Counted from the stretch's first letter, positions 29,189 to 42,344 are shown. The stretch: DNA of 64,000 bases from an uncultured Fibrobacterota bacterium (GCA_963753345.1 CAVWBU010000027.1:96001-160000); one strand, 5' to 3'. Notes: generated by a model not told the origin, from the letters alone. Program-made: numbers and translations.

Positions 29189-30058
29189 TTACCTCAGAAC
29201 CGCGTAGTTCTTCCGGAATTTCCACAGGGGAGTGCCTTTTGCAAAGTGCGGCATCACGTAGCCGCGCGCCAGAGCGTTTGACAACGGTGGTCTGCTGATC
29301 GCACGCTCGATGACGTCATCAACGGAATCGTACGAGTAGATGCCCCACACCGGCACGATGCCCCGTCCGGCATGCCTGCGGCGGTTCGCGTACGAAGTCG
29401 CCGCAGTGTAGCCTGCCTCGCGCGCGGCATTCCACACACGGCTGTTCCATTGACCGAAGGGAAACGACAACGAAGTAATGGGCTTGCCCGTTATGTCTTC
29501 CAGAATACTTTTCGAACGCGAAAGTTCGTCGCGGAGATCGGCGTCGCACAGCAGGGTGAGGTTTGCATGGGTCACGGTGTGACTGCCGATCTCGTGTCCC
29601 AGTCCAGCGATTTCGCGCAGTTGTTCTTTTGTCAAATGGGTTTGCGGGGGCAGCGTGTCCCACGTCGAGGGCCTGCCGAGATATCCGGCAACAGGGAAAA
29701 CAGTCACCTTGTATCCATGTTCCTGAAGAAGCGGGAGTGCGGCCGTGTGAAAACTGTCGAAACCGTCGTCAAAGGTCATGACAATGGTAGGAGGATGGTC
29801 GACGCCTGACCATTCCGGGCCCGCCGCCTCGGAGACCGTGGCAAATGTTGCGTTCTCCTGTTTGAGAACGCGGAGAAGCGCCGCAAACTTGACGGGGGAA
29901 TAGAAGGAACAATGGGGCTGTGGTTTTTCCAAGATGGTGTGCAGGAGGAGGCCGACAGGACCTGGACGGGAGGGACGTGCGCCGAACAACAGGAGCGCGG
30001 CAGTTCCTAGACACAGGGGAAACACCAGAAAAGCGATTGCGATATACGCTGCCGTCAT
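29189..30058 (-). CDS. Polysaccharide deacetylase (CE4/NodB family)
   Basis: N-terminal TM helix, TFDDG, GSHTVTH, SFPFG. Confidence 0.88.
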   Translation of the reverse strand: MTAAYIAIAFLVFPLCLGTAALLLFGARPSRPGPVGLLLHTILEKPQPHCSFYSPVKFAALLRVLKQENATFATVSEAAGPEWSGVDHPPTIVMTFDDGFDSFHTAALPLLQEHGYKVTVFPVAGYLGRPSTWDTLPPQTHLTKEQLREIAGLGHEIGSHTVTHANLTLLCDADLRDELSRSKSILEDITGKPITSLSFPFGQWNSRVWNAAREAGYTAATSYANRRRHAGRGIVPVWGIYSYDSVDDVIERAISRPPLSNALARGYVMPHFAKGTPLWKFRKNYAVLR

Positions 30059-30117: not shown

Positions 30118-31008
30118 CTACGAACCGTTTCGGGAGCGGTTGAAAAAGCGCGAAAGAATGCCCTTTTCATTCTTGATTTTTTGAAAAGCGGCCTTTCCTT
30201 TTGCCTTGTTCTTAAGGTAGTTCATTGAAGTGAAGTACAGGTATTCGGTGTTGCTTGGCGGAGGAATTCTTCTGAGGACCGCTGGCGACAGCGATCGCGT
30301 GCGCCCTGTTTCGGCATGGGGGACCGTGGCCAGAACTTCGTCCGGAGCGCGCGTTCGGGAAGGAGGTTCTTCCTTCTGGACCGAAGCAAACTCAAGATGC
30401 TTGGTTGCCGGCGGCGGCGGAATAATCCGGGCGGTTTCCCGCGCGCGGGTCTTCTGGCCGCCGCCCGTGGCGGTCGACGGAACGGCCTCGCCTTCCGTAG
30501 ACTCAGGACCGTTTTTCTGCCCGTCAAAGAACGAGTCGAAACCCTGTTCGACATCATCCTGTGAGAGCGAGGGCATCGCCATGGGCCCCTGAAACAGGTT
30601 TTCCATGTTGCGGCTGATCGCGGCAAGCGCCTCCTGCAGCAAGCCGACATGTCGCTCGATGCCGGCGTTTACCGTGGAGAGTTGCACCGACCTGTCGAAT
30701 ATTGTCGCAAGAATCGTGTTGTCGTCGACGAGCGAAATAAAAAGGTTTTTCGAATTCCCGCTGTGCAACATCGTTCCGAACTCGTGCTCGCCGATGAGGC
30801 CGGCAATCGCCTGCGTCGAAGCAAAACTGCCCACGATGAGGGCGGCGAGCGCAGACATGTCGAACATCGCAAGCGTGCCTTGATGGGCGAGAAGGCGCGT
30901 GTCCTTGTTGATGAGGAGCGCCGAAATGATCTTGGTTTCGCTAACAAACGCCTGCAGGATGGAATTAAGCCTGTCAATGTCTTCCTTGTAAAGAATTACA
31001 TCGCTCAT
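30118..31008 (-). CDS. mglB: MglB-like Roadblock/LC7 protein with long C-terminal extension
   Basis: Roadblock domain (ALLINK...[22 protein letters not shown]...IFD); start overlaps the mglA stop. Confidence 0.8.
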
Positions 31009-32390
31009 TGAGGTTTGTCTTTGTTGAGAAATTTTGAGAGAAAGCTGCCCTGCGGTTTTGACTTGGGGTTGACGGGACGCTTAATTTTCTTGCGCTGACC
31101 TGTATTGACAGAGGTGAAAAACAGCGGCTGTTCTCCGTCGGAAGCCGCTGGAGCTTCCTGGACGTCGTCTGCTTCGGCTTCCTGATATTCCTGGGCCTGC
31201 TCGTCGGATGCGGGCGCGTTGTAAACGTCATAACTGCCTTTTTGAGGCGCGGGGAAGGTGTTCCGCTGCTGCTGGGCGGGAGAGGAGAGCGCATCCTGCG
31301 GCTGCTGCGCCTGGGGCGGCTGCGAGGAAGATTGGAGCGTCCGCAGCCTGCGTTGTTTCTCCTCTATTTCACGCTGGTATTTTTCTATTTCAAGATCGAG
31401 CTCTGTCTTGCTGTCAACCGGCGGTTGCGGCGCGACCGGAGCCGGTTGCGGGGCAGGGGACGATTGGGCCATGGGCTCCAGGTCGATCGTTCCATAGTCG
31501 TACCCGTAATCCTGGCGCGGCGCCTGCGGCTTTTGGGGCTGCGGCGGAGGAGCGACAGGACGGGGCGCGGGCTGCGCCTGAGGCTGCGGACGGAAGGTCT
31601 GCTGAGGCTGCGGCGCAGCCTGAAAAATGTCCTGCTGATATTGTTGCGGAGCGGGAGACGGACGCTGCGGCATAAACGGCGTCTGCTGCTGCGGTCTTTG
31701 CGGAGGAGGTACAGCGTACGGTTCCGCTGCAGGCCGCTGCTGCGGTATCGGTGCCGCCTGAATCGGCGGGCGTTGAACCGGAGCCGCTCCCAAGGAAGGC
31801 CTGGAATACTTTTTGTTAAGACTGTCGATCACGATCTTACCGATGATCTTGAGGGATTCGAAAACGCCTTTTCCCTGGTTCGCCACCGCTTCGTTCCACG
31901 GGTAGCCGAACCTGTTGAGCGCCTTTTCGATGGTCTCCACCGGTAGAGCATTCGGAAGATCGCGCTTGTTATACTGAATTACGATGGGAATGCTGCCTTG
32001 CTTTATGCCGTATTCAGCGAGGTTGTCGTGAAGGTTCTGGAAACTTTCCTGGTTCTCCTGCATTTTGTCCTGGGCCGAATCGGCGACAAATACGACTCCG
32101 TCAACGCCGCGGAGAACGAGCTTCCTGGTTGCGTTGTAGTAAACCTGGCCCGGAACGGTGTAGAGCTGAAATTTGGTGGAAAATCCTTTGATCTTTCCGA
32201 GATCAAGAGGAAGGAAATCGAAAAACAGGGTTCGGTCGGTCTCCGTGGCGAGCGACACCATATCGCTCCGGTAGTCAACCGGGATCTTCCTGTGGATTAC
32301 CTGCAGGTTGGTTGTCTTGCCGCTGAGGCCGGGACCGTAGAAAACGATTTTTACGCTTATTTCTCTGATCGCATAATTAATTGAAGCCAT
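31005..32390 (-). CDS. mglA: MglA-family small GTPase with Pro/Gln-rich C-terminal extension
   Basis: [41 protein letters not shown] are hallmark MglA motifs; about 260 extra C-terminal residues. Confidence 0.92.
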
Positions 32391-32638
32391 CGATGGTTCC
32401 CTCTCTTAATCACGAGGCAAAAAAACTCTTGTGCGGTTATACGCTCCAATCGGCCAACGATGCACCCACGTTTTCACAATTAATATAGTTCCGAAAGAAA
32501 GCAGATGCAAGGAAAGTGTAGGTAGCACAAAACAATCGCTCATGGATTTTTTGTCGCTTTGCAATGTCCGAAATTCTCCCTCAATCTGCTGCAAGATTTC
32601 GCGAGGGGAGGGACCTGCGTCACATCGCATGTACCATG

Positions 32639-33712
32639 TTACTGCTGAATGCCGCGGAAAATTTTGGTCTCCCTGCCCGTAACCGCATCAACCTTTGAAA
32701 TGAGACCGGCCTTGACCAGCGATGCGGCGTCAGAAGGCGGTCGTCCCTGCAACGCCCTGTACTGAAGAGCGGCAATCGCGGTCTTCCGCGTATTCCATTG
32801 CATCTCCACGGTTGCAATGGATTGAAGACGGCCCATCTCTGCTTCGCGTAAAAAGGTCTTCTTGCCGAAAAATGAAAACAGAAAAAGCGCCGACATCCAG
32901 AGCAGAACGATGATTGCGGATCCCATGGCCGCAATAACTTCGGCAATCAGCTTTCCAATTGAAACGGCCGGCGCTTTTGCCTGCTGATGTTTGACGGCAA
33001 GCGGTGCGATTGTGGAATTCTGCCATAATGCAAAAAGAGTTTCGTAAACACGATACGAGTGAATGATTGATTTTTCGCAGAGCGCCCCCACGGCTGTTTT
33101 CCCGTCCACGAGAGACAACACGTAATCCGAGAGATTGGCAAGCGGCGATGCCGGCGCCGCGGAGGGCACGGCGGGTTTGTTGACAATGGAAAATATCGTG
33201 TTGTTTGAGATATGCTGGCGGATCCTTTTCCATTCGTCACTCCGGCGCATTGCCTCCATGGTGATCGCGTCAACCGGAAACGATACGCCGCCGACGACGT
33301 ACTCCTGGATGCTTTCGAGCGAGTCGAACCGATAATTGCCGTCGTCCCACAGGAAAAGGCCGCAGGCGAGGTCTTCAACCCCCATTTGCGCAAGGGTGGC
33401 AAGCTCATTGGCCGCAAGATAATTCCTATTCACCAATTCCCGCGAAAACTGCCGCATTTCCCCGTGGCACACGTACAAGAGTTCGTTGATCTCTTCGTTG
33501 GAATAATGACGCATTGTCTTGAGATACCGAAAGAGAAATGTCTGCAGATTCTGTTCGCTCGTGCCGGCCGCAATCACGGAACCCTGCGAAAAGATGACAA
33601 ATGCTTCGCTGTCGCGGTGTGAGAGGACCAGCTGCCCGGTCTTGGAGTCGCGGGAAATAAGCTGAAAGATTTCCGAAAGTTCGAACTCGCGAAGACTGCC
33701 CCGGAGTGCCAT
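32639..33712 (-). CDS. DUF4388 (PATAN-like) domain membrane protein
   Basis: MALRGSLREF.LSEIFQLI....KTG.L, LFLWDDG.Y.F, MEAMRRSDEW; one TM helix near the C-terminus. Confidence 0.82.
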   Translation of the reverse strand: MALRGSLREFELSEIFQLISRDSKTGQLVLSHRDSEAFVIFSQGSVIAAGTSEQNLQTFLFRYLKTMRHYSNEEINELLYVCHGEMRQFSRELVNRNYLAANELATLAQMGVEDLACGLFLWDDGNYRFDSLESIQEYVVGGVSFPVDAITMEAMRRSDEWKRIRQHISNNTIFSIVNKPAVPSAAPASPLANLSDYVLSLVDGKTAVGALCEKSIIHSYRVYETLFALWQNSTIAPLAVKHQQAKAPAVSIGKLIAEVIAAMGSAIIVLLWMSALFLFSFFGKKTFLREAEMGRLQSIATVEMQWNTRKTAIAALQYRALQGRPPSDAASLVKAGLISKVDAVTGRETKIFRGIQQ

Positions 33713-33713
33713 G

Positions 33714-35873
33714 TCAATTTCCCCGCTTGGTGAAAACTACCACAGTGCCGACGATCCCCCGGATCGCGAAAATGCCGAAGTATATTCCAACGGCGCAATA
33801 CAACGGCACGGTAACCATTTGTATCGCCCACGCAGGGTAATCAAAAGTTGCATGACGAAGCGAGAAGAAAAGGGCATACACCATTGACGTTGCCGCAAGA
33901 AGCGGCAGCGATTGGTACAAAGGCGCCTCACGGCAAACGAAGCCGGCTCCCGGGAAGAAAAGATCGAGCACCATCGCCCGTACCATTTGAAACCTGATCG
34001 TCCCCAGCTGGATTTTTTCCATAATGCGCTGGCGGATCTGCTCGTTGCGGATGCTCTGGGTCGCCTTGAAACAACTGCTGCAAATACTCCCGCGCTTGCA
34101 CTTGCGACATACCGGTTTCTGACAGACCTTGCAGGATGCCACCCTCCGCACCATGTCTTTTGACCATACGGCATTATCGAGAACGAGAAGCAAAATGAAG
34201 AGAATTACGGACAGGAAACTATACCAAAGGAGCGGAAGGCCGAAAAAGAGTCCGCCGAATCTCTTCTGCGTCGTTTCCCAGGAGCCGCAATAGGCGGGGA
34301 ATATGTTTTTCCAGAAATACCCGGGGCTGAAATCCGGCCAGATGAGCTGGCGGAGAGGCGGCCAGTCTTTTATAATTGGAAAATAGTCGTCATTTTTCTT
34401 AATAAACGCGTCCACGAACTCGGGATCCATGCGTGAGGCCTGGGTTGTGTAATCCATGCCCTTGGCCGTCTCCATGGTCCCGTAATAATAATATTGACCG
34501 AGGTTGAAATAGGGGGGGGCGTAGCCCGGATAGAGGCTGATGCAGTGCTCGTACGCATTTCTGGAGCCGGGAAGGTCGCCGGCATAGTAGAGAGCATTTC
34601 CCGAGGCGGTGATCACAATAGGGTCGTCTTTCGCAAGCGATTGCGCCATTTTAAGGTAGGGAAAGCCTGCAAGCGGCGTCCCTTTTTTGCAGAAGCAAAG
34701 TGCGACCGCGGTTTGGGCAAGGAAGTCGTTGCTGTTGTGCAGCGCGTGCAAACCGACCGTCGTCTCGAGCGGGCCGTAATATCCCTCATCAAGCACCTTC
34801 TTGTAAAGCTCCACCGAACCGTTCGCGGAAAGCGTCTGGTCGAACATGTCGTTGACTTTAACGCCGAGAGGGACAAGGAGAAACATCACGAGGGCGACAC
34901 CGGCGAGCCATTTGTCCTTGGGAACAAATCGCCGCCACAGGATAAAAAAGCAGACCCATGCAAAGGGAAGCATGCCGAGAAATGCGACAGATCCTACCGC
35001 CGCCATCGCGAGAACCAGTTTCCCTCTGGCGTTGAGAATATCCGGGAACCGCTCCGACAAGAGATGGAGCGCAATTGGTGCGCACCGTACCGCGAGGCCC
35101 AGCAGAATCCCCGCTATTAAAAACTCGACCACCAGGGAGAGCCAGCGAAACAGGGCGCGGACGCATGCAAGCTGGGTTTCCCATGACGCGGAAAACGACC
35201 CCCCCATGTCGCGGAGCAAGTCTACGGCCTTCGCAAGGTCAAGAATCCCGGCGTGTTCGATGGAAAAAACTGCGGGCCACAGGCAGCGTCGGTCGAACCT
35301 CTGCGCCCAACCGGTATAAAATTTAATATCGTTCCCGTTACTGCCGGCAAGTGCGACCGACGAGCGATAGAGGAGCTGCTGCACGATGACGGGAGCGGCT
35401 CTCGCACCGGACGTTAGAAAAAGCTGTTCAAGCTTCTTGAGGCATTTTTCCTCCCACGCAGCCAATTCGCACCTGTCAAACTCAACGGCAAGGACCCATA
35501 GTTTGCCGGGATCCCCTTCCGCCGCGGCAACGGCGCGGGCAAACCAACTGGCGGCAACGTTGATGTCGTTGCCGGAAGCTAGCCCTCTCAGAAAGCAGAA
35601 CCACGGAGTGGTGGTGTCCTGCACCGCCGTGCGGATATTGCCCGGTTCCGCCGTCAAATGCTGGAACCGGGCGCTGTCGATGCCCGCTTCGCGATAGCAA
35701 CTGTCCCGCGAATCAAGCGCCGAGGAGATTTCGTGCTCCCAGAAGACCGGATCGGCCCGGGGTGCCAAAGGAACCAGCGCGACAAACCCCAGCCAGACAA
35801 GAAGGGGCATGCCGACACGGCCACGGCCGGACGGGAAGAGAAGATGTTGAAGGAGCACCGTTGTTACTTGCAT
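33714..35873 (-). CDS. Multi-TM TPR protein with C-terminal Cys cluster
   Basis: Several TM helices, TPR-like repeats (GNALYYAGD, YFNLGQYY), CKVC...CRKC...CSSC; exact start uncertain. Confidence 0.72.
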   Translation of the reverse strand: MQVTTVLLQHLLFPSGRGRVGMPLLVWLGFVALVPLAPRADPVFWEHEISSALDSRDSCYREAGIDSARFQHLTAEPGNIRTAVQDTTTPWFCFLRGLASGNDINVAASWFARAVAAAEGDPGKLWVLAVEFDRCELAAWEEKCLKKLEQLFLTSGARAAPVIVQQLLYRSSVALAGSNGNDIKFYTGWAQRFDRRCLWPAVFSIEHAGILDLAKAVDLLRDMGGSFSASWETQLACVRALFRWLSLVVEFLIAGILLGLAVRCAPIALHLLSERFPDILNARGKLVLAMAAVGSVAFLGMLPFAWVCFFILWRRFVPKDKWLAGVALVMFLLVPLGVKVNDMFDQTLSANGSVELYKKVLDEGYYGPLETTVGLHALHNSNDFLAQTAVALCFCKKGTPLAGFPYLKMAQSLAKDDPIVITASGNALYYAGDLPGSRNAYEHCISLYPGYAPPYFNLGQYYYYGTMETAKGMDYTTQASRMDPEFVDAFIKKNDDYFPIIKDWPPLRQLIWPDFSPGYFWKNIFPAYCGSWETTQKRFGGLFFGLPLLWYSFLSVILFILLLVLDNAVWSKDMVRRVASCKVCQKPVCRKCKRGSICSSCFKATQSIRNEQIRQRIMEKIQLGTIRFQMVRAMVLDLFFPGAGFVCREAPLYQSLPLLAATSMVYALFFSLRHATFDYPAWAIQMVTVPLYCAVGIYFGIFAIRGIVGTVVVFTKRGN

Positions 35874-37898: not shown

Positions 37899-38963
37899 AT
37901 GGACGGATCCTTTACCCATACGGAACTGCGCGGGGCGATTCACCTGCACACGACGTATTCCGACGGCGGGGTTTCTTACCCTGTGCTCATCGACACGGCG
38001 GCGGGGCTCGGGCTGGATTACATCGTTGTCACCGACCACGGATCGCTTGCGGGAAGAGAGGCCGGATACGAGCGGTTTCACGGGGACCTGTTCGTGTGCG
38101 TCGGATACGAGCACAACGATGCCGGCAACATCAACCATTACCTTGCGATCGGGTGCGAGTCGGTGGTGAGCTGGCGCGACACCCCGCAGGGGTACATCGA
38201 CCGGATAAAGGCTCAGGGCGGCGTGGGGTTCATCGCCCATCCCATAGAGGTGCGCCACTACTTCGAGAAATATCCTCCGTACCCGTGGACCGCATGGGAC
38301 GCAACGGGATTCGACGGCATAGAGCTGTGGAACCAGATGTCCGACTGGCTGGAAAGCCTGCGGCACAGGCTCCATTTTGTCAAGTTATTCTACCCGCGAA
38401 GGTTTCTTCTGGAAATACGGAAGGAGCTTCTGGCGAGATGGGACGCCATGAACCGCAGCCGCTTCGTGGCCGGCATCGGCGGCGTCGACGCCCATACCAT
38501 GAAGGTCAGGTTCGGGCCGCTCAGCCGTACCATCTTTCCCATCAAGGTGGAACTCAAGGGGATCAGGACGCACCTGTACGTCGAGCGGCCGCTGCCGGCT
38601 TGCGATGTCGCCGGCGCAAAGGCAATGCTGCTGTCGGCGCTCAAGAACGGGAACGGATTCATCAGCAATTTCAGGAGGGGCGACGCAAAGGGAACGCGGA
38701 TGTTCTTCCTTGACAACAAAGACCGCGCGGTGCCGCCCGGGCTCTGCGGCATCGCCGCGGAGGCGCCCGGACGCCTCGTCGTGCAGGTCCCGGAACAGGC
38801 CGAGATCGTTCTTGTGCGCAATGGCGAGCGCATCGCGTCGCACGGCGGACGGGAGGCGGAGTTTGCAATCAGGAATAGTGGCGTTTACAGAATAGAAGCG
38901 CGAAAAGGAAAATATGGCTGGATTTATTCAAATCCTTTCCCCGTGGGAAGCTATCCGCTGTGA
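37899..38963 (+). CDS. PHP-domain metallohydrolase
   Basis: HLHTTYSDG, TDH, AHP, GGVDAH, WIYSNP; start may be 37848 or 37899. Confidence 0.85.
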   Translation: MDGSFTHTELRGAIHLHTTYSDGGVSYPVLIDTAAGLGLDYIVVTDHGSLAGREAGYERFHGDLFVCVGYEHNDAGNINHYLAIGCESVVSWRDTPQGYIDRIKAQGGVGFIAHPIEVRHYFEKYPPYPWTAWDATGFDGIELWNQMSDWLESLRHRLHFVKLFYPRRFLLEIRKELLARWDAMNRSRFVAGIGGVDAHTMKVRFGPLSRTIFPIKVELKGIRTHLYVERPLPACDVAGAKAMLLSALKNGNGFISNFRRGDAKGTRMFFLDNKDRAVPPGLCGIAAEAPGRLVVQVPEQAEIVLVRNGERIASHGGREAEFAIRNSGVYRIEARKGKYGWIYSNPFPVGSYPL

Positions 38964-39005
38964 TTGCCGCCGTTCGGCCCCGTTCGGGGCGGGGAACGGG
39001 CGCTC

Positions 39006-39971
39006 ATGAGTCTCCCGCTGCCGCAGCGTTGCGCGGACGCCGTATTTCTTTCCCGTCCGCTGCTGTTGATACCGGTTTGGGGCTTCTGCAGCTTCGGGTA
39101 TGTCGCCGGGCTGCGGTGCGTGAGGGGAGTGGCGTTCGCCTTCGGGTGGGGCGCTCCGTTTCCGAAATTCGGTTGGATGCTGGTATTCTCGCTTTCAGTG
39201 GCCGCAGTCTACGTCTTCAATCAGATAACCGACCGCAACGTCGACGCGGTGAACGCCGGCTTCCCATTGTTGTCAAAGGGGAACATCCCGCTCCGGGTGG
39301 CGTGGGCCAGCGCCGCTCTTCTCGCGCTTGCGTCGGTTCTCATTCCGCTGTGGACGCGTCCTGGTGTGGCGGTGTTTTCGTGCCTGGCGCTTGCAGTGGG
39401 GTTTGCCTACAGCGCAAAACCGGTGCACCTTGCGGGACGGCCGGTGTGGGATTTTCTCGCAAACGCCTCGGGATACGGTCTCATCGCGTTCGGCGCGGGC
39501 TGGCACCTGTCGGGCGCCGCGTTCGGGGCGCGGTTTCTCGCTTCGAGCCTGCCGTATTTCCTGCTCATGTGCGCCGGTTCCATAAGCTCGACGCTGCCGG
39601 ATTACGAAGGAGACCGGCGATACGGCAAAAACACAACGGCCGTTTTTCTCGGCGTGAGAAAAGCCCATCTTGTCGCGTGCGTATTCATTGCGGCGGGACT
39701 CGCATGCTCCCTGCTGGTGCGCGACTGGGCCGCGGCGGCATGCGCCGGATGCGCCGTTCCGCTGTATGCGGCGCATGCCGTTCGCAATACGGTGAGGAGC
39801 ATGGAGGCGACCTATAAAATCGGCGGCATGCTCATGATGGTCGCCGCCGCGGTTCTTGTTCCCTGGCTTGTTCCGGCGTCTCTGGTGTCTCTTCTAGCAA
39901 CGGTGATGTACTTCCGCCTGAGGTTTCATGTCTCGTATCCTTCGCTCGTGCCGATTCCTCCAAAGGGTTAG
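39006..39971 (+). CDS. UbiA-family prenyltransferase
   Basis: Multi-TM; NQITDRNVD, AYS..P, LPDYEGDRRYGKNT. Confidence 0.88.
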   Translation: MSLPLPQRCADAVFLSRPLLLIPVWGFCSFGYVAGLRCVRGVAFAFGWGAPFPKFGWMLVFSLSVAAVYVFNQITDRNVDAVNAGFPLLSKGNIPLRVAWASAALLALASVLIPLWTRPGVAVFSCLALAVGFAYSAKPVHLAGRPVWDFLANASGYGLIAFGAGWHLSGAAFGARFLASSLPYFLLMCAGSISSTLPDYEGDRRYGKNTTAVFLGVRKAHLVACVFIAAGLACSLLVRDWAAAACAGCAVPLYAAHAVRNTVRSMEATYKIGGMLMMVAAAVLVPWLVPASLVSLLATVMYFRLRFHVSYPSLVPIPPKG

Positions 39972-40980
39972 GATTGCCCTGGGTGCGGCGGCGCTGCTGG
40001 CCGCGGCCTCGCCGTGTGCCGGGTTTTCGCTTCCGGCAGACAGGTCCGCTCAGGCAAGGGCGGTTGTTGACAGGCTTGTTGCGGGCGACTATGACGCGTC
40101 GCTGCTTCTGTGCGACTCAATGATCCGGTCCGACGAAGCCGATCCGCTCGGGTGGATGCTCAAGCTCTCCGCCATAGGGCTCCACGACCTCGACCTTGAC
40201 AGCGCGACAGAATCGCTTGATTTCGGCGGCGTTTTCAGGAAGACTTCAAATGTTATTTACAAATATGAGCGTACCCACGGCGTTTCATCCTATTCGCGCA
40301 CGATCAAGGGATTTTCGCGGGGTATGTCGGCCGCCTACAGTTTGTGGAGGAAAAAATACCTGGCAGGGCTCGATCTCGGCTTCGGCGCCATGGACGACCT
40401 GCAGGAGGCGAAGAAGCTTGACAATTCGAACTTCGACGTCGATTTCTTTCTCGGGTTCTATACCTATGTGCGGGCCGACCTCAAGAAGAATTTCGGCTGG
40501 GCTTTTTTCTGGTACTCCGGCGACAAGGAAGAGGGGATAAGGGCCATCCGTCTGTGCAGCAGAAGCGCGCAGTTCTGCCGCCGGGCCGCGGCATTGCTGT
40601 TGAGCGAGGTCCTGTACCGCGAGGGCCGGTTCGCCGAGTCCGATTCGATCACCGCCGATCTGCTGCGCTTGTTTCCCGGCAGCCGTCTCGTGCAATGGAC
40701 ATGCGCGAAACGGGCCGAAGCGGCGCGGTCGTGGACCGAGGCGGCGGCTTCGTACACAATGCTTGCCGACGCCTACGAGTCACTGCCGAGCGCTCGGAGA
40801 AACTCCCTGGTCACGCGGGACAGGGCGGCGCACATGTATTTTTGTGCCGGCGATTTCGGCCGTGCCAGGCTTGCCTGCAACAAAATTCTCGGACGTGCCT
40901 GCGCGCGGGGCGACGCGTTCTGCCGTCAGATCAGCGAGGACGCCGCAAAACTTCTTGCCGGGCTGCCGGCGGTGCGGTGA
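39928..40980 (+). CDS. Secreted TPR-like helical hypothetical protein
   Basis: Signal-like N-terminus and helical repeat character; coupled to both neighbours. Confidence 0.65.
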   Translation: MSRILRSCRFLQRVRIALGAAALLAAASPCAGFSLPADRSAQARAVVDRLVAGDYDASLLLCDSMIRSDEADPLGWMLKLSAIGLHDLDLDSATESLDFGGVFRKTSNVIYKYERTHGVSSYSRTIKGFSRGMSAAYSLWRKKYLAGLDLGFGAMDDLQEAKKLDNSNFDVDFFLGFYTYVRADLKKNFGWAFFWYSGDKEEGIRAIRLCSRSAQFCRRAAALLLSEVLYREGRFAESDSITADLLRLFPGSRLVQWTCAKRAEAARSWTEAAASYTMLADAYESLPSARRNSLVTRDRAAHMYFCAGDFGRARLACNKILGRACARGDAFCRQISEDAAKLLAGLPAVR

Positions 40981-40994
40981 CACAAGGGAACACC

Positions 40995-41180
40995 ATGATT
41001 GCCGTTGACCAGACACTGTGCGACGAGTGCGCAACCTGCGTTTCCGTGTGCCCGACCGATGCAATGATTCTTGACGGAAAGATAATTATTGACGAAGGAA
41101 AATGCATTTCGTGCGGGAATTGCGTTGATGTGTGCCCGTTCGGGGCGCTGTCGCAGGCCCCGGCGCGGGGAAAGGGCTAG
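40995..41180 (+). CDS. 2[4Fe-4S] ferredoxin
   Basis: CDECATCVSVCP and CISCGNCVDVCP; AAGGGA RBS. Confidence 0.93.
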   Translation: MIAVDQTLCDECATCVSVCPTDAMILDGKIIIDEGKCISCGNCVDVCPFGALSQAPARGKG

Positions 41181-41183
41181 GCA

Positions 41184-42344
41184 ATGGCGCAGCCAAGGCA
41201 CTTCGACATCACCGTCGTCGGCGGCGGGCCCGCGGGAATAGTCGCCGCAATTCATGCGGCGCGCGGCGGGAGAAAAGCGTGTCTTGTCGACCGCAAGAAA
41301 AACACCGGCAGTCCGGTCCGGTGCGGAGAAGCCATCGGCCTCAAGGGCTTTTCGTCGAGCGTAAGCCTCAAGCCGGAATGGATTAAGTGCAGAATTTCCC
41401 ACATGAAGCTCGTTTCGCCGTCCGGGATGGCCGTGACCGTGCCCAACAGCTATGAAGGGTACAGCATCGACAGGGAAAAAATGGAAAGCGATCTTACGCG
41501 CGAGGCTGTCACTCTCGGCGTTGAGTTCTTTCCGGACACGTCAATCGTTTCGGTGCAGCAGGACAACGGCGGGTACCTTTGCGAAAGCAAGGACGCGGCG
41601 TTCGCGTCCCAGTGCGTCATCCTTGCGGAGGGCGTCGAATCCAGGCTCGGCCGAAGCCTCGGATGGAAAACTGTTCTTGACAGAGGAGATATCCATTCAT
41701 GCGCGTTCGCCCGCGTTGCGCATGATCGCGTGGAGCCGGGCGCATGCGTCTTTTACCTGGGTTCCCGGCGCGCGCCGGGCGGGTACGTCTGGGTGTTCCA
41801 CCGGGGCGGGAACACCGCCAACGTAGGGCTCGGCGTCATCGGGGACCGCTGCCGGGCGGGAATGCCGAGGGCGCTATTGGAAGAATTCATCCGCGAGGAA
41901 TTCCCCGGCGCGCAGGTTTCGGACGTGCACTGCGGCGGAGTTCCCATGGCCCGGTGGATACGTCCGCTGGTGCGCGGCGGCGTAATGCTCGCCGGCGACG
42001 CCGCGCACATGATGAACTGCATGAGCGGCGCGGGCATCGCCTATGCCCTCTATTCGGGAAAAACCGCCGGCACGGTCGCGGCCGAATCCTTTGCAGAAGG
42101 GAAATGTCGGCGGAAACTGTTGATGCGCTATCAGGATCAGTGGGCTTCCTTTTACGGCAAACAGCAGAACCGGTCCTATGCCGTAAAAGAAGCCATGATC
42201 GGATTCCCGGACGCCTTTCTCGACGACATTGCCCGCGCCGTGACGCGCAAGGGCGCCAAGCCCATGAGCATTCTTTCGATTTTCATACGCGCCTTTTATA
42301 AAAGGCCCTTATTATTGATGAAAGTCATCCGCCTTCTCAAATAA
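41184..42344 (+). CDS. Geranylgeranyl reductase-family FAD oxidoreductase
   Basis: VVGGGPAG, RCGEAI, APGGYVWVF, ANVGLG, LAGDAA, SGAGI. Confidence 0.88.
   Translation: MAQPRHFDITVVGGGPAGIVAAIHAARGGRKACLVDRKKNTGSPVRCGEAIGLKGFSSSVSLKPEWIKCRISHMKLVSPSGMAVTVPNSYEGYSIDREKMESDLTREAVTLGVEFFPDTSIVSVQQDNGGYLCESKDAAFASQCVILAEGVESRLGRSLGWKTVLDRGDIHSCAFARVAHDRVEPGACVFYLGSRRAPGGYVWVFHRGGNTANVGLGVIGDRCRAGMPRALLEEFIREEFPGAQVSDVHCGGVPMARWIRPLVRGGVMLAGDAAHMMNCMSGAGIAYALYSGKTAGTVAAESFAEGKCRRKLLMRYQDQWASFYGKQQNRSYAVKEAMIGFPDAFLDDIARAVTRKGAKPMSILSIFIRAFYKRPLLLMKVIRLLK

Follow-up and report, generated by a model that had tools for sequence, protein, structure and literature searches.

A 64,000-nucleotide stretch of DNA from an uncultured Fibrobacterota bacterium (GCA_963753345.1, CAVWBU010000027.1:96001-160000; hereafter the window) carries five adjacent genes encoding, in order, a PHP-family protein, a UbiA-superfamily membrane prenyltransferase, a TPR-like protein, a ferredoxin, and a geranylgeranyl reductase (GGR) family protein. 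With modest confidence, we read these genes as one operon of isoprenoid-lipid machinery, in which ferredoxin and reductase would saturate prenyl chains, the UbiA and TPR proteins would carry out a transfer other than that of digeranylgeranylglyceryl phosphate synthase (DGGGPS), and the PHP protein would remove a phosphate. The gene set, its conservation, the coupling of ferredoxin to reductase and of UbiA to TPR protein, and the family placements are well supported by computation, and from these we infer the substrates and all of the reaction steps. The source genome (4.5 Mb in 55 contigs, 94% complete) contributes the window from its contig C27 (96001-160000), and the close homologues are named as Fibrobacterota metagenome-assembled genomes (MAGs) of Chitinivibrionales and Chitinispirillaceae type, the organism itself being Chitinivibrionia-type. 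All five proteins and their close relatives are known here from sequences and models alone.

Gene arrangement and the ferredoxin-reductase pair

A preliminary description of this DNA had reported five closely spaced genes, and all five are present as plus-strand open reading frames (ORFs) with gaps of -44 to +42 nt (Table 1). The gap of 3 nt that it gave between ferredoxin and reductase is exact, the ferredoxin stop codon TAG occupying 41178-41180 and the reductase starting with its ATG at 41184. On one side the cluster is flanked by rpsT and lysA (minus strand), on the other by tkt (plus strand). A scan of species-representative genomes yielded 51 related loci, all but one with a Fibrobacterota-type label, at which gene presence was scored by tblastn; a contig end cuts through many of the loci scored as misses. 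The TPR gene is present at 46 of these loci, the ferredoxin gene at 44, the reductase gene at 42, and the PHP gene, upstream of the cluster, at 35, so that the UbiA-TPR-ferredoxin-reductase arrangement is not due to chance. Gene order is kept across the families of the order at 41-50% protein identity while the flanks differ; in close relatives, rpsT, lysA, and tkt are syntenic too. At 35 loci a second UbiA paralogue (UbiA-A), which scores approximately 150-175 bits on the profile of the operon's own family (UbiA-B), lies between the PHP gene and UbiA-B; in the window and its nearest relatives, UbiA-B is the only one of the two.

The phylum-wide distribution was determined in a sample of 201 genomes, in which families are labelled f10 to f15 and a genus g15. 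UbiA-B family matches, counted at E<=1e-30, occur in 72 of the 201 genomes, with at least 2 matches in 56 of those 72. Such matches are frequent in the order to which the window belongs and in families f11-f14, and at this threshold none was found in f10 (0/78) or f15 (0/22). GGR orthologues, taken as matches of >340 bits, were seen in all genomes sampled from the order and also in f11-f14; f10 and f15 have paralogue-level matches only (<=250 bits).

The reductase passes the TIGR02032 GG-red-SF model (174 bits against a cut-off of 158.8, model positions 1-296 of 297) and the GGR_cat domain model PF22578 (69.1 against 27 bits). A profile of 20 of its orthologues finds the digeranylgeranylglycerophospholipid reductase (DGGR) of Thermoplasma acidophilum (3OZ2) as the best solved relative, over the full length (248 bits, E 1.5e-72), and matches the Sulfolobus GGR with 119 bits. 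The sequence holds VVGGGPAG (the FAD motif GxGxxG), the catalytic Cys47 in RC47GE, P198GGYVWVF205, and LAGD272. The PxGYxWxF motif pointed out in the preliminary description is present as APGGYVWVFH, with H206 where the orthologue consensus has P. Three GGR-family paralogues are encoded in the genome, and the window copy scores highest on the DGGR models (157 and 136 bits versus 50-88 bits). Its 157, 136, and 35.5 bits on the DGGR equivalogs NF041160, NF041080, and NF041385 are nevertheless below the cut-offs of 780, 580, and 700, as are 63.1 bits on MenJ (NF045655; 700) and 98 and 75.8 bits on the ChlP/BchP models TIGR02023 and TIGR02028 (343.3 and 505.3). Since the DGGR, MenJ, and ChlP equivalog cut-offs are all missed, the protein is placed in the GGR family and no more narrowly.

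The ferredoxin matches Fer4 (PF00037) with 62.3 bits in two stretches and has two CxxCxxCxxxCP motifs, CDECATCVSVCP and CISCGNCVDVCP. Its gene adjoins the reductase gene in all 42 loci holding both. Five loci were also fetched from UbiA-B-lacking genomes of the order, and in all five it stands directly before the reductase gene. In one of these genomes (G071, locus L079) the order is PHP-ferredoxin-reductase, with both UbiA and TPR absent; in the genus g15 (L075, L076, and L077) ferredoxin and reductase are kept, and UbiA, TPR, and PHP are all absent at the locus. The only g15 locus annotated upstream (L076) has a 165-aa flavodoxin-like gene before the pair and two M16 peptidase genes further upstream. 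The two proteins are also encoded as a single ORF at L016, a low-coverage MAG in which a sequencing error is possible, and at the metagenome locus L145 (468 aa, Fer4 and GGR_cat domains). Because the ferredoxin stays with the reductase where UbiA and TPR are missing and is fused to it in relatives, the pair is the fixed core of the cluster, and, judging from the sequences, it is very probably the ferredoxin that supplies the reductase with electrons.

These features bear out the earlier assignment of the reductase and its adjacent ferredoxin to the archaeal lipid-reductase type, given the 3OZ2 match and the two fusions. The sections of PMC10821996 considered here name Cys47, PxxYxWxFP, and LxGD as GGR features and state, as does an entry in the reference list of PMC7852524, that the Methanosarcina GGR requires a ferredoxin encoded at the same locus. 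The window pair resembles the archaeal DGGR and ferredoxin of Thermoplasma (3OZ2) and Methanosarcina acetivorans in Cys47, PxxYxWxF, LxGD, and the full-length profile match, and, as in the Methanosarcina case described in those sections (PMC10821996), a small 2x[4Fe-4S] ferredoxin is encoded beside the reductase. It differs from the archaeal DGGR in being bacterial and far below the equivalog cut-offs, and in having its ferredoxin gene upstream and sometimes fused.

Table 1. Genes of the operon and other UbiA-superfamily genes of the source genome. Plain coordinates count from the first letter of the window; those with a contig label refer to the contigs of the genome.
Feature	Location	Strand	Remarks
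PHP-family metal-dependent phosphoesterase (plausible), C-terminal beta-sandwich	37899..38963	+	354 aa; alternative in-frame starts 37830, 37849
UbiA-superfamily membrane prenyltransferase (UbiA-B)	39006..39971	+	321 aa; ORF open from 38964; database form starts 39006
TPR-like all-alpha protein, predicted exported or membrane-anchored	39928..40980	+	overlaps UbiA gene by 44 nt
2x[4Fe-4S] ferredoxin, presumed electron donor of the reductase	40995..41180	+	61 aa; 14 nt past TPR stop
FAD-dependent GGR family protein, nearest archaeal DGGR	41184..42344	+	TIGR02032, GGR_cat
Heme O synthase-like UbiA-superfamily gene	C40		
Decaprenyl-phosphate phosphoribosyltransferase family member	C18		269 bits vs 234
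IspH-UbiA fusion (L007)	C27:348776-350686, outside window		636 aa; TIGR00216 276 vs 188; C-terminal PF01040 42 bits
DGGGPS-like UbiA paralogue	C49		137 bits on NF009521, 100 on NF009522, 144 on PRK12884; below cut-offs

A scan for promoters and terminators was uninformative, giving a promoter-like site before tkt only and 7 terminator-like sites against 7.5 expected. Operon DNA occurs in 13 sequencing runs, none of which is recorded as RNA. Near-identical operon DNA (0.6-0.92 of sampled words) was seen in metagenome runs on peat and freshwater sediment, which come from two studies; in one run on soil the fraction was 0.25.

Several nearby genes are noted separately from the operon. Genes for HDOD, CheX, and response-regulator proteins, conserved downstream in relatives and absent from the window, were considered as members but set aside as signalling genes with no relation to it. 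A TPR membrane protein of 719 aa (window 33714-35873) shares synteny with the operon in 13 relatives. On the minus strand at 30118-33712, genes for a Roadblock/LC7 protein, an Arf/MglA-like small GTPase (461 aa), and a DUF4388 protein stand in a row that looks like a polarity or motility-type GTPase module. On contig C16 (L071, 97477-100737), a GGR-family paralogue of 436 aa (166 bits on TIGR02032) lies directly upstream of a squalene-hopene cyclase gene, an arrangement suggesting that lipids of hopanoid or squalene type have a reductase of their own.

The UbiA, TPR and PHP proteins

The UbiA protein matches PF01040 with 79.4 bits (cut-off 34.2). Both of the motifs assigned to it at the outset, NQxxDxxxD and DxxGD, are found, as NQITDRNVD and PDYEGD, and N72, Q73, D76, D80, D199, and D203 are invariant in 22 sequences. 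Its best curated NCBIfam model is ChlG (NF005742, 52.6 bits against 313), and scores are far below the cut-off for every equivalog, including BchG (TIGR01476, 46.2 against 212.3), MenA (TIGR00751, 20.7 against 102.15), and the DGGGPS models NF009521 (35.8 against 296), NF009522 (31.5 against 353), and NF009512. It reaches 39.7 bits on homogentisate phytyltransferase (HPT) and 27 bits on NF008978, and 4-hydroxybenzoate polyprenyltransferase (TIGR01474) is absent among its matches at E<=0.01. Among solved structures, the family profile matches the archaeal UbiA homologue AfUbiA (4TQ3) best, with 54.6 bits over residues 13-239, followed by the decaprenyl-phosphate phosphoribosyltransferase (DPPR synthase) 8J8J (32.7 bits over 86 residues); Methanocaldococcus jannaschii DGGGPS (6M31) scores 31.5 bits. 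Searched with the family profile, a library of 1.84 billion representatives gave 3741 proteins at E<=0.001, and at E<=1e-30 the family amounts to 250 representatives (50% identity). None of 37 diverse members comes near any curated NCBIfam, the top models being a generic 'prenyltransferase', ChlG, and HPT (E approximately 1e-22). By these profile comparisons, UbiA-B is a large family without a curated NCBIfam model; neighbouring clusters in the Atlas are from WOR-3 and Zixibacteria.

The preliminary description had pointed to DGGGP synthase as a UbiA-family enzyme, and the analysis does not support such an activity for this protein. A different UbiA gene of the genome, on contig C49, scores 137 and 100 bits on NF009521 and NF009522, and 144 bits on PRK12884. 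In a quick IQ-TREE phylogeny of 43 sequences, with long branches and no outside reference enzymes (archaeal or other), the window protein falls in the UbiA-B clade (SH-aLRT 97-99), apart from the C49 paralogue, which pairs with the DGGGPS-like gene of locus L145 (SH-aLRT 98). Since a much better DGGGPS candidate is thus encoded elsewhere, the operon's UbiA is, on sequence grounds, probably not the DGGGP synthase. It shares with DGGGPS 6M31 and AfUbiA 4TQ3 the UbiA fold family and the two Asp-rich motifs, and is unlike the former in its low profile score and in its separate clade.

The TPR-like window protein has no Pfam match, while its orthologue at L012 reaches 27.3 bits on TPR_14 (cut-off 23.5). 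Its AlphaFold2 (AF2) model (pLDDT 89.9) is an all-alpha solenoid of 16 helices whose fold matches are generic, namely designed and natural TPR solenoids (E 3e-5 to 1e-3, TM 0.4-0.55). Because the N-terminus is a hydrophobic, signal-like segment, often ending in AxA, the protein is most likely exported or anchored outside. In the Fibrobacterota set, which includes the window's own segment, 43 loci hold both genes, and in 41 of them UbiA is immediately followed by TPR. A metagenome scan with a sister-clade alignment yielded 80 loci, of which 52 span 6 kb or more; a TPR homologue is present in 19 of these 52, and in 16 it again directly follows UbiA, so that, as far as gene order tells, UbiA and TPR are an old two-gene unit. 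A natural fusion of the two (P0122, 659 aa), in which residues 328-657 align to the TPR family with an hhalign probability of 100, retains the basic-hydrophobic linker. A complex prediction for UbiA-B and the TPR protein scored 0.00 and counts neither way.

The PHP protein stands just under two cut-offs, with 25.5 bits on PF02811 (26.4; orthologues reach 31.9-35.8) and 71 bits on the CehA/McbA metallohydrolase model NF038032 (80). The AF2 model (pLDDT 85.3) consists of a PHP barrel and a C-terminal beta-sandwich. Its best fold matches are uncharacterised PHP phosphoesterases, 3E38 (E 7e-10) and 2ANU, in a range of E 1e-8 to 1e-10 with TM of only 0.4-0.6; RNase AM and nucleotide phosphatases score lower. 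Ten residues (H15, H17, D22, H47, E71, H80, H114, D197, H199, and H225) are invariant in 20 orthologues, and by analogy these His, Asp, and Glu residues, including the HxH start, would be metal ligands. A role as phosphoesterase is plausible from the model. The beta-sandwich (residues approximately 265-354) has a weak Foldseek match to the prenyl-binding protein PDE6-delta (E 6e-3 to 8e-3, TM approximately 0.27); it matches other Ig-like sandwiches equally weakly, and PDE6-delta is a lead only.

Lipid genes elsewhere in the genome and in other lineages

Geranylgeranylglyceryl phosphate (GGGP) synthase (GGGPS), absent from the window and suggested earlier as a target for a genome search, was found on contig C35 (TIGR01769, 224 bits against 161.55; NF003198, 287 against 247). 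The genome has five UbiA-superfamily genes (Table 1), of which one joins a complete IspH/LytB, the last enzyme of the methylerythritol phosphate (MEP) pathway, to a UbiA-like membrane domain. At E<=1e-25, 85 of the 201 genomes have an orthologue of the DGGGPS-like protein of C49, used as the query, most of them belonging to the order or to f11-f13. The range of these orthologues is nearly that of the GGR orthologues, a clade-level pattern in related genomes and not a set of independent events. As for menaquinone genes, neither MenD nor MenG was found at cut-off in the genome, and MqnA/D gave no match.

In other lineages, the commonest neighbour of UbiA is a NodB-type polysaccharide deacetylase gene, just upstream in 18 of the 52 longer metagenome loci. 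The window has a homologous deacetylase 8 kb upstream of the operon (29189-30058, minus strand; PF01522, 108 bits), 32% identical to the NodB-type neighbour. Recurrent near UbiA in the metagenome loci are genes for GT4 and GT2 glycosyltransferases, an LpxL-like acyltransferase, LpxD/Skp, uppS-cdsA, and ispG. At the locus L012, a GT2 gene and a HAD phosphatase gene lie downstream. A GGR gene adjoins a UbiA family member in 5 of the 80 metagenome loci (L084, L090, L122, L132, and L145), in three arrangements; L115 and L120 were rejected as further cases, the gene in question encoding a DUF362-Fer4 protein.

The fullest of these neighbourhoods, L145 (4359-13853), runs in the order Skp, LpxD, NodB-type deacetylase, UbiA (of the family), a pyruvyltransferase-like gene, a 556-aa protein with a faint PHP-like match, DGGGPS-like UbiA, fused ferredoxin-reductase, and GGGPS. 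Its UbiA is 33% identical to the window's, its DGGGPS-like protein 31% to the C49 protein, and its GGGPS 54% to that of the genome. Going by these homologies, L145 is a compact cluster for archaeal-type ether lipids, carried by a bacterium of Gram-negative type. The idea, put forward in the preliminary description, that the operon makes a saturated prenylated lipid gains from this neighbourhood, in which a UbiA family member lies near DGGGPS-like, ferredoxin-reductase, and GGGPS genes; a reading of the operon's own UbiA as the DGGGPS is not supported.

Archaeal-like lipid genes in bacteria that belong to the FCB (Fibrobacteres-Chlorobi-Bacteroidetes) group, this phylum included, are already published, as the sections considered here of PMC7852524 and PMC6431249 attest. 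Orthologues of glycerol-1-phosphate dehydrogenase (G1PDH), GGGPS, and DGGGPS are described there for Chitinispirillum and Chitinivibrio of the same phylum (Coleman et al., PMC6431249). In the sections of Villanueva et al. (PMC7852524) considered here, GGGPS-DGGGPS co-localisation in bacteria seemed confined to Ca. Cloacimonetes, a lineage of the same superphylum that resembles the present genome in having GGGPS, a DGGGPS-like UbiA, and GGR homologues without CarS. Unlike in those accounts (PMC7852524, PMC6431249), GGGPS and DGGGPS-like genes are unlinked in this genome, and no G1PDH-type gene was found. The same sections make no mention of this operon, of a second UbiA family, or of a TPR, PHP, or ferredoxin partner. 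In the open-access papers searched, we found no account of the operon, the UbiA-TPR family, or the ferredoxin-reductase module in Fibrobacterota, although published supplements may list some of the genes.

The pathway and its alternatives

In the pathway that we favour, the ferredoxin would feed electrons to the DGGR-type FAD reductase, which, by family, would hydrogenate geranylgeranyl double bonds to give phytanyl-type chains. Its substrates may be prenyl (ether) lipids begun by the GGGPS of C35 and extended by the DGGGPS-like UbiA of C49. The operon's own UbiA, with both Asp-rich motifs for binding Mg-diphosphate, would perform a further transfer with a diphosphate leaving group on the same lipid class, adding an extra isoprenoid group or building the head group rather than making the canonical second ether bond, and would act with its exported TPR partner at the membrane's outer face. 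The PHP phosphoesterase would strip phosphate from an intermediate, which would fit a pathway without CDP-archaeol synthase (CarS). As its product we predict a cell-envelope lipid or glycolipid with saturated isoprenoid chains.

A number of observations weigh against this pathway. GGGPS is nearly phylum-wide (191/201 genomes; 78/78 in f10 and 21/22 in f15), and UbiA-B is missing from f10 and f15; GGGPS presence is therefore not specific to the operon and says little about it. The GGGPS and DGGGPS-like genes of the genome lie among unrelated genes, unlinked to the operon. Neither CarS nor a G1PDH-type gene was found in the 94%-complete genome, in which the best PF13685 match is a generic iron alcohol dehydrogenase. 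Some genomes of the order, such as G087 (100% complete) and G089 (93%), have no UbiA-B and still retain GGR orthologues, so that the reductase does not depend on UbiA and the shared operon could be one of convenience. The weak best matches of the UbiA family (ChlG, HPT, and generic 'prenyltransferase') use non-glycerol acceptors, and the NodB-type deacetylase and glycosyltransferase neighbours speak for a product that contains sugar and not for a plain diether. L138, L140, and L145 look like one lineage, so L145 counts as a single observation. To these we add the quick tree, given its lack of outside reference enzymes.

The sugar genes are the main argument for what we consider, of the alternatives, the one to be taken most seriously, though in itself rather unlikely: that the operon serves an envelope glycolipid or lipid-linked glycan. 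UbiA would then act in the manner of DPPR synthase, with a polyprenyl or lipid phosphate receiving or giving up a phospho-sugar or prenyl group, PHP would dephosphorylate, the TPR protein would handle the product, and GGR would supply a partly saturated (dolichol-like) polyprenol. Besides the NodB-type deacetylase before UbiA, its homologue in the window, the GT4, GT2, LpxL-like, LpxD/Skp, and uppS-cdsA genes beside several loci, and the GT2 and HAD phosphatase genes at L012, DPPR synthase is the second-best structural match, and in mycobacteria the UbiA-type transferase is followed by a phosphatase step. That match is weak, however, as is the score on NF008978; the genome encodes a true DPPR-synthase family member separately on C18, and the Fibrobacterota operon has no sugar genes, the genes conserved downstream of it being for signalling (HDOD, CheX, and response regulator). 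Less probable again is that the operon's UbiA is the DGGGP synthase after all, making the second ether bond on GGGP before the ferredoxin-reductase pair saturates and PHP dephosphorylates. The UbiA fold with both Asp-rich motifs, the GGGPS in the genome, and the shared operon with a DGGR-type reductase and ferredoxin would suit it, and the tandem paralogues of most relatives (35 loci; 56/72 genomes) could in principle make two ether bonds. Set against these are the scores on NF009521 and NF009522, where the C49 protein does far better, the low score of the family profile on 6M31, the separation of the DGGGPS-like pair in the quick tree, the occurrence at L145 of a distinct DGGGPS-like gene, beside GGGPS, in addition to a family member, and the GGGPS-bearing genomes of f10 and f15, all of which lack UbiA-B.

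A UbiA next to a GGR is also the classical pairing of the ChlG/ChlP, HPT, and MenA/MenJ pathways, in which an aromatic or tetrapyrrole-type head group is prenylated and the side chain reduced. The best, if weak, curated matches of the UbiA protein are indeed ChlG, BchG, and HPT, families that also lead among the 37 diverse members, and its first motif is of the NQxxDxxxD type; like ChlG or HPT with ChlP, the operon combines a membrane UbiA bearing NQ/NDxxDxxxD with a GGR, and phytyl chains are the product of those systems. Its curated scores are, however, 4-6 times under the cut-offs, and the reductase is closer to DGGR (157 bits) than to the ChlP-type models (98 and 76 bits) or MenJ (63 bits, cut-off 700). 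No aromatic-pathway gene stands in any conserved neighbourhood, and we saw no evidence that the organism is phototrophic. Because no head-group pathway was found in the genome, the quinone or tocopherol-type reading appears weak, and with it the prenyl-quinone product that the preliminary description had kept as an alternative; we regard an aromatic acceptor as very doubtful. We give slightly less credence still to mere synteny, with the ferredoxin-reductase pair as one unit, UbiA-TPR as another, and PHP unrelated, in no common pathway. It would account for the solitary ferredoxin-reductase pair of g15 with its flavodoxin-like gene, for the PHP-ferredoxin-reductase order of G071, for UbiA-TPR without GGR in most metagenome loci, and for the syntenic rpsT, lysA, and tkt of close relatives; it sits poorly with the tight or overlapping spacing, with an order kept at 41-50% identity while the flanks change, and with a GGR lying independently beside UbiA family members in other lineages, in three arrangements.

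Returning to the isoprenoid-lipid operon that we favour, a bolder version, which we put forward as possible but unlikely, takes UbiA-TPR as a new and widespread family of bacterial membrane transferases that performs a third, non-archaeal step on isoprenoid ether lipids. Together with PHP, it would attach a head group or a further isoprenoid unit to the lipid phosphate without CDP activation, and the TPR protein would hand the saturated lipid or glycolipid on in the direction of the outer envelope. If true, such attachment would explain how archaeal-type lipids are finished in these bacteria without CarS.

FCB-group bacteria are the main living test case for 'mixed' archaeal/bacterial membranes, and two steps are open in bacteria, namely the saturation of the chains and the completion of the lipid without CDP-archaeol synthase. 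The operon offers clonable candidates for both, a ferredoxin-coupled DGGR-type reductase for the first and a UbiA family with an exported partner and a phosphoesterase for the second, and cultured relatives exist in the lineage. If the UbiA family is a new lipid-building step, several hundred sequence clusters across uncultivated phyla would gain an annotation.

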